In this document: piece by piece, positions 30,001-36,000 of the stretch
Layout: each line of letters begins with the position of its first letter
Numbering within the stretch: the first letter of the stretch is position 1
Assembly (NCBI RefSeq): GCF_056712565.1
Contig: NZ_CM160072.1
DNA: 64,000 bases
Reading direction: 5' to 3' (one strand)
Program-made: the position numbers

Positions 30001-33000
30001 ATGGCCCAGCGGAAGGATCGATTGAGGCCAGCCTGACAGTGCTGGCGGAGATGCAACAACAAGGCCTGGTAAAACATATTGGCCTGAGTAACGTCACACC
30101 GACGCAGGTTGCAGAGGCGCGAAAGATTGCCGAAATCGTCTGCGTGCAGAACGAATACAACATTGCCCACCGTGCTGATGACGCAATGATTGATGCTTTG
30201 GCTCGTGATGGCATTGCCTACGTGCCATTCTTTCCGCTCGGGGGCTTTACGCCGCTGCAATCCTCCACGCTTTCCGATGTTGCTACGAGCCTGGGTGCAA
30301 CACCAATGCAGGTGGCGCTGGCGTGGCTGTTACAACGTTCACCGAATATTTTGTTGATTCCTGGAACATCTTCTGTTGCGCATTTACGGGAGAATATGGC
30401 TGCTGAAAAATTGCATCTTTCTGAGAAAGTGTTGTCTACGTTGGATGGTATTTCGCGAGAATAACGAATATACAAAAGGGAAAGATGCATTTCCCTTTTG
30501 TTTCTTTTTTAATGGCATGGAGTGCATATGTTTAAGGCCAGGATTTGCGGCTGGATAATCAGTGAAAAGGCGATGGATTCATTGATTCGTACAGTGATAG
30601 ATGGTATCTCACTGATATCCAGACGGTAATCAAACAGATGTGTAGGGCATTCATCCACCACATCTTGATATATTCCGAATTTACGTTGATGCTGCGCGTT
30701 GTGATATCTCCGCCGTCGGAATTGATGCACCATAGAGCAAACTGAATATCACGGAATGATAAATGACGCTCTACCAGATAAAACCGCTCTTTCAGTCGCT
30801 GTTAAGGCCGACGATGTTTTGGCTTTATAAGCACCATGTTACAGCGAATCACATCACTCTTGCTGCACTGGCGCTTTCTCTTCTTACCGGATTGCTGTTG
30901 GTGTTGGTGGCACAACCCATCCTCTTTTTGCTATTGCCCATCGTGCTTTTTATCCGTATGACGCTCAATGCGCTGGATGGCATGTTGGCGCGTGAGTGCA
31001 ATCAGAAAACACGTCTGGGGGCGATTTTGAATGAAACTGGCGATGTTATTTCCGATATTGCGCTCTATTTACCGTTTTTATTTTTACCGGAAAGTAACGC
31101 ATCACTCGTAATACTCATGTTATTTTGCACCATATTGACCGAGTTTTGCGGTTTACTCGCGCAGACGATTAACGGTATTCGTAGTTATGTCGGTCCATTT
31201 GGCAAAAGCGATCGCGCGTTAATATTTGGTCTGTGGGGGCTGGCCATTGCCATTTATCCACAATGGATGCAATGGAATAATCTTTTATGGAGCATTGCTT
31301 CAATTCTGCTTCTCTGGACTGCGATTAATCGTTGTCGAAGTGTGCTCCTGATGAGCGCTGAAAGATAATGCTGGAAAAATCTCTGGCAATACTCTTCGCG
31401 TTGTTAATTTTAGCAACGCTGATAAACCGTTTTCTGGTATGGCGGTTACCGGAGAGAAAAGGCGATGAAGTAACATTACGTATTCGTACCTGGTGGGGCA
31501 TCGTCATTTGTTTTTCACTGGTGATTTCAGGTCCACGCTGGATGACGTTGACGTTTTTTGCGCTGATAAGTTTTCTGGCATTGAAAGAATATTGTACGCT
31601 TATATCCGTACATTTTCCGCGTTGGTTATATTGGGTTATTCCTCTTAACTATTTGCTTATCGGTTTTAATTGCTTTGAGCTGTTTCTGTTATTTATACCT
31701 TTGGCTGGGTTTCTGATATTAGCCACCTGGCGAGTTTTTGTAGGTGACCCCTCTGGTTTTCTGCATACCGTGAGTGCCATTTTTTGTGGCTGGATAATGA
31801 CCGTTTTCACCTTGAGTCATGCCGCCTGGTTATTAATGTTGCCAACCATAAATATCCAGGGCGGGGCGTTACTGGTGTTATTTCTTTTGGCGTTAACCGA
31901 GTCAAACGATATTGCACAGTATTTATGGGGAAAATTCTGCGGCAGAAGAAAAGTGGTCCCCAAAGTCAGCCCGGGAAAAACGCTGGAAGGTCTGGTTGGA
32001 GGAGTAATCACCACCATGATTGCGTCACTGATTATTGGACCGTTACTGACACCGCTAAATACATTACAGGTATTATTAGCGGGTTTGTTAATTGGTATTA
32101 GTGGTTTTTGCGGCGATGTAGTGATGTCAGCCACCAAACGAGATGTTGGTGTTAAAGATAGCGGAAAACTATTACCAGGACATGGCGGACTCCTTGACAG
32201 GATTGACTCATTAATTTTCACCGCTCCGGTATTTTTTTATTTTATTCGCTACTGCTGTTACTGAAGGAAAACAGAGAAAATGGAAAATTCACGCATCCCT
32301 GGGGAGCATTTTTTTACCACCAGTGATAATACAGCGTTGTTTTATCGGCACTGGCCCACTTTACTGCCAGGGGCGAAAAAGGTCATCGTCTTATTTCATC
32401 GCGGTCATGAACATTCTGGTCGTCTACAACATATCGTTGATGAACTGGCGATGCCAGATACTGCTTTTTATGCATGGGATGCCCGAGGGCATGGACAAAC
32501 TTCGGGGCCGCGTGGTTATAGTCCGTCTCTTGCGCGTTCAGTGCAGGATGTTGATGAATTTGTCCGTTTTGCTGCCAGCGACAGCCAGGTCGGACTGGAA
32601 GAGGTGGTTGTGATCGCGCAAAGCGTCGGCGCAGTGATGGTTGCCACATGGGTTCATGATTATGCGCCTGCTATTCGCGGACTAGTGCTGGCATCTCCGG
32701 CCTTTAAGGTTAAATTGTATGTGCCGCTGGCACGTCCTGGGCTGGCGTTATGGCATCGTCTGCGTGGTCTGTTTTTTATTAATTCCTATGTGAAAGGGCG
32801 TTATCTGACCCACGATCGGCAACGGGTGGCGAGTTTCAATAATGATCCGCTGATCACACGGGCGATTGCCGTCAATATCTTGCTCGATCTCTATAAAACG
32901 TCTGAACGTATTGTTAGCGATGCGGCGGCGATTACGCTCCCCACGCAACTTCTGATATCAGGCGATGACTATGTGGTGCATCGCCAACCGCAGATTGATT

Positions 33001-36000
33001 TTTATCAGCGTTTACGTAGTCCTCTGAAAGAGCTGCATCTGCTGCCAGGCTTTTATCACGACACGTTGGGTGAAGAGAACAGGGCGCAGGCATTTGAAAA
33101 AATGCAAAGCTTTATCAGCCGTTTATATGCTAACAAGTCGCAAAAATTTGATTATCAGCATGAAGACCGCACAGGACCATCAGCGGATCGCTGGCGGCTC
33201 CTTTCTGGTGGACCCGTGCCGTTATCGCCGGTTGATTTGGCGTATCGCTTTATGCGAAAGGCGATGAAACTGTTCGGGGCGCACTCTGCGGGCCTGCATC
33301 TCGGAATGAGTACCGGCTTTGATTCAGGCAGTTCGCTGGATTATGTCTATCAAAATCAACCGCAAGGCAGTAACGCATTCGGGCGCTTTATCGACAAAAT
33401 CTACCTGAACAGTGTTGGCTGGCGCGGTATTCGCCAGCGCAAAACCCATTTACAAATGCTGATTAAACAAGCCGTTGCCCATCTCCACGCCAAAGGTTTA
33501 GCCGTCCGCGTGGTTGACATTGCCGCAGGGCATGGGCGCTATGTACTGGATGCGCTGGCAAACGAGCCTGCCGTAAGCGATATTTTGTTACGTGATTACA
33601 GCGAGTTAAATGTTGCACAGGGGCAAGAGATGATTGCTCAACGGGGAATGTCTGGGCGGGTGCGTTTTGAACAGGGCGATGCGTTTAACCTGGAGGAACT
33701 CAGCGCGTTAACTCCGCGGCCTACGCTGGCGATTGTCTCTGGCCTGTATGAGCTTTTCCCCGAAAATGAGCAGGTAAAAAACTCACTCGCAGGTCTTGCC
33801 AATGCCATCGATCCGGGTGGCATTCTCATCTACACCGGGCAGCCGTGGCACCCACAACTGGAGCTGATTGCCGGGGTGTTAACCAGTCATAAAGATGGTA
33901 AACCGTGGGTAATGCGCGTGCGTTCGCAAGGGGAGATGGATTCGCTCGTGCATGATGCCGGATTCGATAAATGCACACAACGGATTGATGTGTGGGGCAT
34001 TTTTACGGTTTCGATGGCGGTGCGTCGTGATAACTGAACGCCGGAACGTATTGCTACAAGGAGCTGGCTGGTTATTGTTGCTGGCCCCGTTTTTCTTCTT
34101 TACATATGGATTTCTTAATCAGTTCACCGCGACTCAGGATCTTAACAACCATGATATCCCCAGTCAGGTATTCGGTTGGGAAACGGCGATCCCTTTTCTT
34201 CCCTGGACTATTGTTCCTTACTGGAGTCTGGATCTTTTATATGGATTTTCGCTGTTCATTTGTAGCTCGACATTCGAACAGCGCCGACTGGTTCACCGGC
34301 TTATTCTGGCAACGGTAATGGCCTGCTGCGGTTTTTTTCTCTATCCGCTGAAGTTTAGTTTTATCCGTCCTGAAGTGAGTGGGGTGACAGGATGGCTATT
34401 TTCGCAACTTGAACTGTTTGATCTGCCTTATAACCAGTCTCCTTCGCTGCATATTATTCTCTGCTGGCTACTTTGGCGTCACTTTCGTCAGCATCTGGCT
34501 GTGAGGTGGCGTAAAGTCTGCGGCGGATGGTTTTTACTCATCGCCATTTCGACGCTGACGACCTGGCAGCATCATTTTATTGATGTCATCACGGGGCTGG
34601 CGGTAGGTATGTTAATTGACTGGATGGTGCCCGTCGACCGTCGTTGGAATTATCAGAAACCTGATCAACGTCGAATCAAAATAGCACTGCCATATGTCGC
34701 AGGCGCGTGCTCGTGCATTGTGTTGATGGAGCTAATGATAATGCTTCAGTTATGGTGGTCAGTCTGGTTATGTTGGCCAGTATTATCGCTATTCATCATT
34801 GGCCGTGGGTACGGTGGGCTTGGCGCGATAACAACAGGGAAAGATAGTCAGGGGAAACTCCCGCCCGCCGTTTACTGGCTGACATTGCCCTGGCGTATCG
34901 GGATGTGGCTGTCTATGCGTTGGTTTTGTCTTCGCCTGGAGCCGGTGAGCAAAATTACTGCTGGTGTTTATTTAGGGGCGTTTCCACGACATATTCCGGC
35001 ACAGAATGCGGTTCTGGACGTCACCTTTGAATTCCCTCGCGGACGAGCGACAAAAGATCGACTCTATTTTTGTGTACCGATGTTGGATCGGGTGGTTCCG
35101 GAAGAGGGGGAGCTCCGACAGGCCGTGGCGATGCTGGAAACATTACGCGAAGAGCAAGGCAGCGTTCTGGTCCATTGCGCGTTGGGATTATCGCGCAGTG
35201 CGCTGGTGGTGGCGGCATGGCTGTTATGTTACGGACATTGTAAAACCGTTGATGAAGCGATTAGTTATATTCGAGCCAGACGCTCGCGGATTGTGCTTAA
35301 GGAAGAGCACAAAGCGATGCTGAAATTATGGGAAAACAGGTAAGCGGATTGAGATGTGGACTGAATATCTACAGTCCACATCAAGATCGTGTCCGGTTAT
35401 GCAGCAACAATACTGTCGATGGCTGCTTTCGCGTCAGACTGCGCTTTCGCTGCCATTTCCGGGCCGTACGCGATCCCTTCGGCGAAGACAAATTTCACAT
35501 CGGTAATGCCGATAAAGCCCAGGAATGTGGACAGATACGGCGTCACCAGATCCGTTGGGCCATCTTTATGGATCCCACCGCGGCTGGTGATAACGATGGC
35601 TTTTTTACCGGTGACCAGGCCTTCCGGACCGTTCTCGGTATAGCGGAAAGTAACGCCTGCACGTGCAACCAGGTCAAAATAGTTTTTCAACTGGGTCGAG
35701 ATATTGAAGTTATACATCGGTGCCGCAATAACGATAACGTCGTGGGCTTTCAGCTCGGCAATCAGCTCATCGGAAAGCGCCAGAGCTTCCTGCTGACGCG
35801 GAGTCAGCGGCGCATCGCTCGGACGCAGTGCACCAACCAGTTCGCCATCCAGGACCGGAATCGGATTTGCAGCCAGGTCACGCACGGTGATTTCATCAGC
35901 GGAGTGCTTTTCGCGCCATTGTTCAACAAAATAATCGGACAACTGATTAGACTGAGAGTACCCTGCCAGGATGCTGGATTTAAGAACTAATACCTTGCTC

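Follow-up and report, generated by a model that had tools for sequence, protein, structure and literature searches.

The closest described counterpart, at the level of a whole system, of the locus analysed here is BT_1522-BT_1526 of Bacteroides thetaiotaomicron (PMC9246714), an inositol-lipid cluster that brings together a phosphatidylinositol phosphate (PIP) synthase with a PIP phosphatase and an AUR1-like IPC synthase. Our locus is the ynbABCD operon of Escherichia coli, four co-directional and tightly packed genes at positions 30763-35343 on the + strand of a 64,000-nucleotide stretch of contig NZ_CM160072.1 (assembly GCF_056712565.1); we refer to this whole stretch as the window. The Bacteroides elements correspond to YnbA, to the dual-specificity phosphatase (DSP) domain of YnbD and to the YnbD membrane domain, respectively. 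The two systems nevertheless differ in several ways: the ynb cluster is without a myo-inositol-phosphate synthase (MIPS); its phosphatase is a Cys-based DSP fused to a transferase-like domain, rather than a PgpA homologue; YnbA has neither the first and third aspartates of the classical signature (D1 and D3) nor the Arg that binds inositol phosphate in the PIP synthase; and the ynb cluster adds a lipase-methyltransferase fusion, a CdsA paralogue and an acyltransferase. A second point of comparison is the step that E. coli CdsA and YnbB catalyse towards MPIase, a diacylglycerol-pyrophosphate glycolipid (PMC6362211, PMC7018664). Here the likeness lies in the full CdsA catalytic signature of YnbB, whereas YnbB does not replace CdsA in bulk phospholipid synthesis, has a divergent N-terminal half, and is encoded together with YnbA, YnbC and YnbD, which have no assigned role in making MPIase. 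Our favoured but still tentative reading is that ynbABCD is what E. coli has kept of a six-gene cluster, conserved and horizontally mobile, for an auxiliary phospholipid head-group pathway. The genes and their domains are as follows.

30763-31368, + strand: ynbA, 201 aa, a homologue of CDP-alcohol phosphatidyltransferases, resembling PIP synthase and archaetidylinositol phosphate (AIP) synthase, with a modified metal-site motif
31368-32264, + strand: ynbB, 298 aa, a CdsA paralogue in which the catalytic signature is intact and the N-terminal half divergent
32280-34037, + strand: ynbC, 585 aa, a hydrolase-methyltransferase fusion
32373-33077, + strand: N-terminal domain of ynbC, an alpha/beta hydrolase like monoacylglycerol lipases and lysophospholipases
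33102-34025, + strand: C-terminal domain of ynbC, a class I methyltransferase dependent on S-adenosylmethionine (SAM), Methyltransf_20 family
34051-35343, + strand: ynbD, 430 aa, TTG start
34051-34836, + strand: membrane domain of ynbD, eight predicted transmembrane helices, PAP2 superfamily, like sphingomyelin synthase (SMS) and inositol phosphorylceramide (IPC) synthase
34945-35343, + strand: C-terminal domain of ynbD, a dual-specificity Cys-based phosphatase, predicted to be cytoplasmic

An earlier reading of this DNA, made from the sequence alone and called the sequence-only reading below, had described four consecutive genes with overlapping or adjacent starts and stops, and this is borne out by the junctions: ynbA and ynbB overlap by one base (TAATG), the gap between ynbB and ynbC is 15 nt long and contains AGGA, and that between ynbC and ynbD is 13 nt with the TTG start at 34051. 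An alternative ynbD start, GTG at 34027 (438 aa), gives an 11-nt overlap with ynbC, and RefSeq records are split between 430 and 438 aa; the ynbD start as called in Vibrio fluvialis, in Snodgrassella and in the plasmid records that we examined gives an overlap of 4 nt with the end of ynbC. The operon stretch is 100% identical to that of the phylogroup-B2-type strains E. coli ATCC 11775, NU14 and APEC O18, in which RefSeq annotates ynbA-D. The families that had been proposed for YnbA, YnbB, YnbC and YnbD all held up in Pfam domain searches. None of the four proteins reaches a curated NCBIfam equivalog cut-off, which argues that they probably represent paralogous or novel subfamilies, not housekeeping enzymes.

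Relatives of these genes are numerous. A search of 1.84 billion representative proteins returned 405 clusters related to YnbC at E<1e-30, with the hydrolase-methyltransferase fusion kept in most of the best matches, and a scan of one genome per species, using a profile of 12 sequences, found at least 566 relatives. The best 80 loci come from Enterobacterales, Neisseriaceae, Burkholderiales, Rhodocyclales, many Pseudomonas species, Bradyrhizobium and one Acidobacteria metagenome-assembled genome (MAG). We surveyed synteny at 84 loci, drawn from the best 80 of the at least 566 relatives, by comparing the E. coli proteins by BLASTP with six-frame open reading frames (ORFs) within +/-10 kb. The gene set is not a chance arrangement, because it is syntenic in these 84 loci, which span Gamma-, Beta- and Alphaproteobacteria as well as the Acidobacteria MAG. 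Whereas ynbC is found in 84/84 loci, ynbA in 83/84, ynbD in 76/84 and ynbB in 64/84, two additional genes recur that have no significant match in the window: one for a small membrane protein of ~135-175 aa, located after ynbD (68/84 loci) and without a match to any Pfam or NCBIfam family, and one for a PlsC-type lysophospholipid acyltransferase with HX4D and PEGSRG motifs (63/84 loci). The invariant core of the cluster is ynbA-ynbC-ynbD, to which about three quarters of the loci add ynbB, the acyltransferase and the small membrane protein. With T for the acyltransferase and s for the small protein, the gene order is A-B-T-C-D-s in Citrobacter, Hafnia, Buttiauxella and Snodgrassella, A-C-D-s-T-B in Pseudomonas, Betaproteobacteria and Bradyrhizobium, and A-C-D, with or without s, in Proteus, Providencia, Morganella and Xenorhabdus. 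Beyond the six cluster genes no neighbour is conserved within +/-10 kb of the 84 loci, and neither a MIPS gene nor a sugar-nucleotide gene is conserved in that interval. Two metagenomic proteins, P0123 (807 aa) and P0150 (927 aa), carry YnbA and YnbC in a single polypeptide, and these natural fusions are strong evidence that the two proteins act together.

The operon genes plausibly form one lipid head-group pathway, and the order given in the sequence-only reading, in which a lipid is activated, receives a head group and is then methylated and dephosphorylated, is plausible too. We propose the following course. YnbB, for which synthesis of CDP-diacylglycerol (CDP-DAG) is reported in the literature, and the lysophospholipid acyltransferase, lost in E. 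coli, would supply CDP-DAG, and YnbA, working at the cytoplasmic face of the membrane, would then transfer the phosphatidyl moiety to an acceptor X, giving phosphatidyl-X. In a third step, cytoplasmic YnbC would act in a manner coupled to YnbA, its lipase-like domain taking off an acyl chain and its SAM methyltransferase methylating the head group or the phosphate of the head group. The cytoplasmic Cys-phosphatase of YnbD would next strip a phosphate, much as PTPMT1 does on phosphatidylglycerophosphate (PGP). Finally, the lipid would flip, and the periplasm-facing SMS/IPC-synthase-like domain of YnbD would take it as donor and give phospho-X to another lipid or envelope acceptor, or else hydrolyse it, with release of diacylglycerol. 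Only the YnbB step rests on experiment; for the others we rely on domain families, the conservation of residues, the YnbA-YnbC fusions, synteny and the predicted topology.

For YnbA the family named in the sequence-only reading stands (Pfam PF01066 CDP-OH_P_transf, 1.2e-8, residues 27-175), but the protein is not the textbook enzyme. Its motif, N69xxD72GxxAR77E...G86xxxN90ExxD94xxxD98, departs from the classical signature D1xxD2GxxAR...GxxxD3xxxD4 in that D1 and D3 are Asn in 29/29 sequences of the YnbA family; N69, N90 and E91 are invariant in these 29 sequences, which reach down to 41% identity. In NCBIfam, YnbA scores 75.1 bits for AIP synthase (cut-off 180) and 48 for PIP synthase (cut-off 170), as against 29 for PgsA and 17.5 for the CAP-type cardiolipin synthase. 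A YnbA family profile finds the mycobacterial PIP synthase over its full length in the PDB (4.4e-12), as well as the AF2299, CPT1 and PssA structures. In Mycobacterium tuberculosis PgsA1 (MtPgsA1; 6h53/6h59), the best PDB relative, Mg-1 is bound by D1, D2 and D3, and Mg-2 by D3 and by D4, which also serves as the catalytic base. Binding of inositol phosphate depends critically on R94, which directly follows D4, and the R94Q variant has almost no activity (PMC6506517). The DGxxAR...G...D...D scaffold is common to both proteins. By contrast, D68 and D89 of MtPgsA1 (Mg-1, with bridging to Mg-2) are N69 and N90 in YnbA, A90 is the invariant E91, and R94 is V95, a position occupied by V, I or L in the other 28 family members. 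A metal site with two fewer negative charges, as predicted for YnbA, would be compatible with a different metal stoichiometry or with an anionic acceptor.

YnbB matches Pfam PF01148 (CTP_transf_1, 1e-67, residues 37-295), and its C-terminal CdsA signature, S-x-x-K-R-x4-K-D...H-G-G-x-x-D-R-x-D, is invariant in 23 sequences; against the CdsA equivalog it scores 112 bits, where the cut-off is 385, over residues 162-291 only. According to a review (PMC7018664), YnbB synthesises CDP-DAG in vitro. Its over-production raises MPIase (PMC6362211), and under CdsA depletion it is reported to restore MPIase, not bulk phospholipid synthesis (PMC6362211, PMC7018664). Knock-out of ynbB leaves growth unimpaired, and a strain deleted for cdsA is not complemented by YnbB (PMC6362211). 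The gene is reported to be cold-induced together with cdsA (PMC11413397), and ynbB insertions are depleted in a strain making only ECA_PG, a form of the enterobacterial common antigen (ECA) (PMC8609368). With YnbB and the ynbA promoter both studied, the term "uncharacterised" in the sequence-only reading was too strong for the operon as a whole; our searches found no paper that gives a reaction, product or function for YnbA, YnbC or YnbD.

The YnbB data raise the question as to whether the operon could be a back-up for MPIase, an alternative in which YnbB would provide CDP-DAG, YnbA would use it with a phosphate monoester, GlcNAc-1-P, to give GlcNAc-PP-DAG, and YnbC and YnbD would trim or regulate pyrophosphate-lipid intermediates. 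The effects of YnbB on MPIase just described speak for this alternative, and ynbB and MPIase are also reported to be induced together in the cold. The TAATG overlap suggests translational coupling of ynbA and ynbB, the Asp-to-Asn changes at D1 and D3 make the YnbA site less negative and would favour an anionic nucleophile, and Compound I synthesis was shown with membrane vesicles, not with purified CdsA (PMC6362211). Against it, although MPIase is reportedly essential, growth is normal in ynbB knock-outs and CdsA is sufficient (PMC6362211). Moreover, the cluster holds no glycosyltransferase or sugar-nucleotide genes, its ynbA-ynbC-ynbD core occurs without ynbB in Proteus, Providencia, Morganella and Xenorhabdus, and neither the methyltransferase nor the lipase has a place in the published MPIase structure. 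Pseudomonas and Burkholderiales carry the cluster but are not known to have ECA-type sugars. In the literature a link to MPIase was found for YnbB only, and none for YnbA, YnbC or YnbD. We consider this alternative unlikely.

YnbC joins two catalytic domains that both appear intact. Residues 32-266 match Pfam PF12146 (Hydrolase_4, 1e-67) and residues 275-582 match PF12147 (Methyltransf_20, 1.5e-150). The hydrolase domain finds monoacylglycerol lipases in the PDB (Mycobacterium tuberculosis Rv0183 and human MGLL, 3.5e-15) and has the HxGxEHSGR motif and the S115/D230/H260 triad of an alpha/beta hydrolase; within the family, D230, H260 and H40/H43/E44/H45/R48 are invariant, and S115 is present in >=90% of sequences. 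With monoacylglycerol lipases and lysophospholipases (Rv0183, 6eic; MGLL; PldB) it has in common the Hydrolase_4 fold, an HGxGEHSGR-type motif and the Ser-Asp-His triad. It differs from them in its nucleophile motif, AQSVG instead of GxSxG, and in its fusion to Methyltransf_20 and sometimes also to YnbA. In the methyltransferase domain, SAM motif I (DIAAGHGRY) and the RD of LLRD are invariant, and the top fold matches of its AlphaFold2 (AF2) model (pLDDT 91.8) are class I methyltransferases. A profile search gave no PDB relative for this domain, and its nearest folds are generic small-molecule O-, C- and N-methyltransferases and an uncharacterised Bordetella protein; neither search points to a methyl acceptor. 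A literature search for Methyltransf_20/PF12147 or the RefSeq product names found nothing. A transposon insertion in ynbC, maybe polar on ynbD, has been reported to cause polyphosphate accumulation in one strain background, HMS174(DE3), in which a group II intron protein was delocalised as well; the Keio deletion lacked this phenotype (PMC2435150).

YnbD had been described as a membrane-anchored Cys-based phosphatase. The phosphatase half of this description stands: residues 306-429 match Pfam DSPc (1e-26), the HC376ALGLSR382S motif of a Cys-based phosphatase (C376X5R382) and D346 are invariant, and a DSP profile finds an archaeal PTP (1e-16) and PTPMT1 (3.4e-12) in the PDB. The mitochondrial PGP phosphatase PTPMT1 (3rgo/3rgq) thus matches the DSP domain, with the difference that protein-directed DUSPs score equally well. 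The membrane half is more than the anchor that had been assumed, and appears to be a PAP2-superfamily catalytic domain with an SMS/IPC-synthase-like fold; a passive anchor was ruled out by invariant His/Asp motifs and a confident PAP2-superfamily fold. Residues 77-189 give weak Pfam matches (PAP2_3, 3e-4; PAP2, 0.0096), the AF2 model of YnbD is of high quality (pLDDT 92.8, pTM 0.89), and N128-Q129, PSLH134 and S167...Q173-H174-H175..D178 are invariant. PAP2 phosphatases are marked by the motifs C1 (KX6RP), C2 (PSGH) and C3 (SRX5HX3D). In YnbD, C2 is represented by PSLH134, and S167, H174 and D178 of C3 are conserved, with V168 in place of the C3 Arg; C1 is partly conserved, P107 being invariant, R106 a Gln in some members and K101 variable. 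PLPP1 matches YnbD only over the C3 region (2e-3). In fold, the membrane domain is closest to SMSr (8ijr) and Aur1 (9ivc), ahead of PAP2 phosphatases, by a modest margin and at 11-13% identity. Because this margin is modest, a transferase rather than a phosphatase function for the membrane domain is a lead, not a result. Unlike SMSr and Aur1, the YnbD domain is fused to a cytoplasmic DSP, and no ceramide is known in the hosts; E. coli is not known to make a ceramide acceptor. Over the YnbD family alignment, the loops placed in the cytoplasm carry ~17 Lys and Arg residues, compared with ~3 for the loops of the other side. This distribution argues that the two catalytic sites lie on opposite faces of the membrane, with the PSLH/HHxxD site predicted to be periplasmic and the DSP domain cytoplasmic.

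The resemblance of the DSP domain to PTPMT1 leads to another alternative, that of a mitochondria-like acidic-phospholipid branch which makes and remodels phosphatidylglycerol (PG) or cardiolipin. In this scheme YnbB would be the CDP-DAG synthase, YnbA a CDP-alcohol-type synthase and the YnbD DSP a PTPMT1-like PGP phosphatase, while the YnbC hydrolase would be a Cld1-like deacylase and the cluster acyltransferase a Tafazzin/PlsC-like re-acylase. The domain inventory fits step by step, PTPMT1 is among the best matches of the YnbD DSP in both sequence and structure, and both domain types of YnbD include PGP phosphatases (PTPMT1 and PgpB); a lipase-like domain next to a lysophospholipid acyltransferase also suggests a cycle of deacylation and re-acylation. 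What makes us doubt this scheme is that YnbA scores better as an AIP/PIP synthase (75/48 bits) than as PgsA or a CAP-type cardiolipin synthase (29/17.5), that the conserved methyltransferase and the SMS/IPC-synthase-like domain have no counterpart in such a pathway, that the core cluster often comes without YnbB and the acyltransferase, and that the hosts already make PG and cardiolipin with other enzymes. It seems improbable.

The distribution of the locus within E. coli bears on whether the operon works at all. Among 5,426 complete E. coli genomes, 4768/5426 match the operon stretch and 4283/5426 carry >=80% of it in one place. A DNA search of the same genomes found the acyltransferase and the small gene on no chromosome; the acyltransferase occurs only on three plasmids, with a second A-B-T-C cluster. 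YnbC from these plasmids is ~75% identical to chromosomal YnbC at the protein level, and with this second, Citrobacter-like cluster the strains in question therefore hold two diverged copies. On one such plasmid, that of E. coli 2015C-3121 (NZ_CP027341.1, 7463-11565), Citrobacter-like ynbA, ynbB, acyltransferase and ynbC are followed by a ynbD truncated by IS66. In total, YnbC homologues are found on 31/72,556 plasmids. The sequence-only reading had the pathway as complete, which is doubtful here, since most relatives have six-gene clusters and the acyltransferase and small membrane protein are missing from E. coli chromosomes. Insertion sequences IS2/IS3 are inserted in ynbA or ynbB in several otherwise identical B2 strains, and other E. 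coli strains have lost ynbA, or ynbB with part of ynbC, by deletion, or retain nothing but ynbA and part of ynbB. As to expression, the activator BglJ-RcsB has a mapped target in the ynbA promoter (PMC3950696), and a plasma-stress transcriptome study lists ynbA, ynbC and ynbD together in the BglJ regulon. Unless activated by BglJ-RcsB or by cold, the E. coli operon shows poor expression, and the cells can do without it. Between this B2 strain and one K-12-like strain, dN/dS is 0.20-0.29 for all four genes, which argues for purifying selection on ynbA-D. The G+C content is 45% for ynbA and 43% for ynbB, compared with 49% for the window. Genome distribution, insertions and deletions, dN/dS, G+C and plasmid copies together lead us to conclude that E. 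coli ynbABCD is an accessory locus, mobile and poorly expressed, which the species still maintains.

The same observations could be taken to mean that the operon is the silenced, decaying relic of a horizontally acquired cluster, with no specific product in E. coli, in which YnbB merely keeps a redundant CDP-DAG synthase activity. The loss of two cluster genes from E. coli chromosomes, the low G+C of ynbA and ynbB, a need for BglJ-RcsB, an activator of otherwise silent loci (PMC3950696), and the 658/5426 genomes without a match, together with the deletions and IS2/IS3 insertions, all point in this direction, and the plasmid-borne copies show that the cluster is mobile. A dN/dS of 0.2-0.3, computed for the four operon genes only, looks high, or relaxed, for core E. 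coli genes. On the other hand, the four ORFs are intact in most genomes, with at least 80% of the stretch in one place in the majority noted above, dN/dS is well under 1 for each of the four genes, and the catalytic residues are all kept. The three-gene version ynbA-ynbC-ynbD, moreover, has persisted in a number of genera of the Morganellaceae, which means that the acyltransferase can be dispensed with. On balance, we think a relic without a product a poor bet. A simple phosphatidylinositol pathway with YnbA as PIP/AIP synthase was rejected because of the missed cut-offs, the replacement of D1 and D3, the hydrophobic residue where the Arg for inositol phosphate sits, and the absence of a conserved MIPS gene within +/-10 kb at the 84 loci.

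Returning to the head-group pathway, several points weigh against it. As the sequence-only reading had supposed of the lipid species, our literature searches found no paper that defines the product of the operon, nor one that reports a lipid-linked phenotype for ynbA, ynbC or ynbD. The cluster holds, across the 84 loci, no gene to make a special head-group precursor. YnbA, without two of the four signature aspartates, may use CDP-DAG non-canonically or slowly; the fold of the YnbC methyltransferase, as modelled, does not point to a lipid substrate; and the YnbD topology is a prediction. In E. coli itself, ~12% of complete genomes have no match to the locus, others show deletion variants or IS2/IS3 insertions, and two cluster genes have been lost. 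The synteny survey, lastly, covers the best-scoring relatives and relies on naive ORF calls.

On either side, the operon is bounded by the following elements.

30472-30501, + strand: strong intrinsic-terminator hairpin after pdxI, with a T-run behind its 12-bp stem; upstream limit of the ynb unit
30502-30762, + strand: upstream regulatory region of ynbA, which should contain the BglJ-RcsB-activated promoter described for K-12 (PMC3950696)
35353-35382, strand not assigned: hairpin between the convergent ynbD and azoR genes, -28 kcal/mol, z -6.4; downstream boundary

The hairpin at 35353-35382 is likely a bidirectional terminator, and was missed by the terminator scan because it has no T-run. 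No Rfam family matches anywhere in 30300-36300, and a consensus promoter scan around the operon gave fewer matches than in shuffled sequence. In K-12-like strains ydbD (DUF2773 bactofilin) lies directly 5' of ynbA, whereas in the window pdxI occupies this place and ydbD is absent. When the window region 30465-30762 is compared with K-12-like sequence, only the last ~95 nt before ynbA are alike, which suggests that the distal promoter elements of ynbA may differ between lineages. Further upstream, an autotransporter adhesin ORF (window 25560-29384, continuing upstream) is one intact 8.3-kb coding sequence in the identical ATCC 11775 record; ydbA of MG1655 has been described as a pseudogene, with full-length versions in only ~42% of phylogroup A strains (PMC4951805).

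Individual clusters in other species show rearrangements of their own. In V. fluvialis the cluster adjoins a resolvase gene, and an internal deletion has joined, at 10606-10998 of the locus stretch, the first ~80 ynbB codons to the last ~40 codons of the acyltransferase gene; ynbA, ynbC, ynbD and the small gene are kept intact. Citrobacter sp. Cu233 has two copies of the cluster, one with six intact genes and the other with fragments of ynbA, the acyltransferase gene and ynbD around an intact ynbC. In Burkholderia ambifaria, a 19-kb record (NZ_CP066768.1, 6275-17052) holds a six-gene cluster in divergent orientation, which adjoins the cellulose-synthase genes bcsB and bcsZ and a diguanylate cyclase fragment; this adjacency to exopolysaccharide genes may be a coincidence. 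We dropped this record, labelled a plasmid, as a minimal context for the cluster, as it is probably a chromosomal fragment.

The features that the comparative analysis adds are the six-gene ancestral cluster, the N-x-x-D...N-E site of YnbA, a two-faced YnbD with an SMS/IPC-synthase-like domain, and the YnbA-YnbC fusions. The comparative data favour the intact six-gene versions of Citrobacter, Hafnia and Pseudomonas over the trimmed K-12 operon for experiments. A more far-reaching possibility, which we put forward as speculative and rather unlikely, is that the six-gene cluster is an envelope-modification system, widespread in Proteobacteria and so far unrecognised. Its own CDP-DAG supply and the atypical phosphatidyltransferase would build a methylated phosphatidyl-X carrier on the cytoplasmic face, and once this had flipped, the SMS/IPC-synthase-like domain would place its phospho-head group onto a periplasmic or outer-membrane acceptor. 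Such a carrier might contain a phosphate-methyl ester, or a head group attached through pyrophosphate, perhaps enabled by the Asp-to-Asn site. The phospholipid map of E. coli is usually held to be essentially complete, and an extra CDP-DAG-dependent branch, equipped with a CdsA paralogue, an unusual transferase site and an SMS/IPC-synthase-like domain, would extend it by a new lipid or a new envelope decoration. The pathway would also clarify the purpose of YnbB and its link to MPIase, and would give a function to several y-genes and to the Methyltransf_20 family in hundreds of proteobacterial species. If true, the envelope-modification reading would give the relatives of E. coli a lipid class and a decoration chemistry that are both new.

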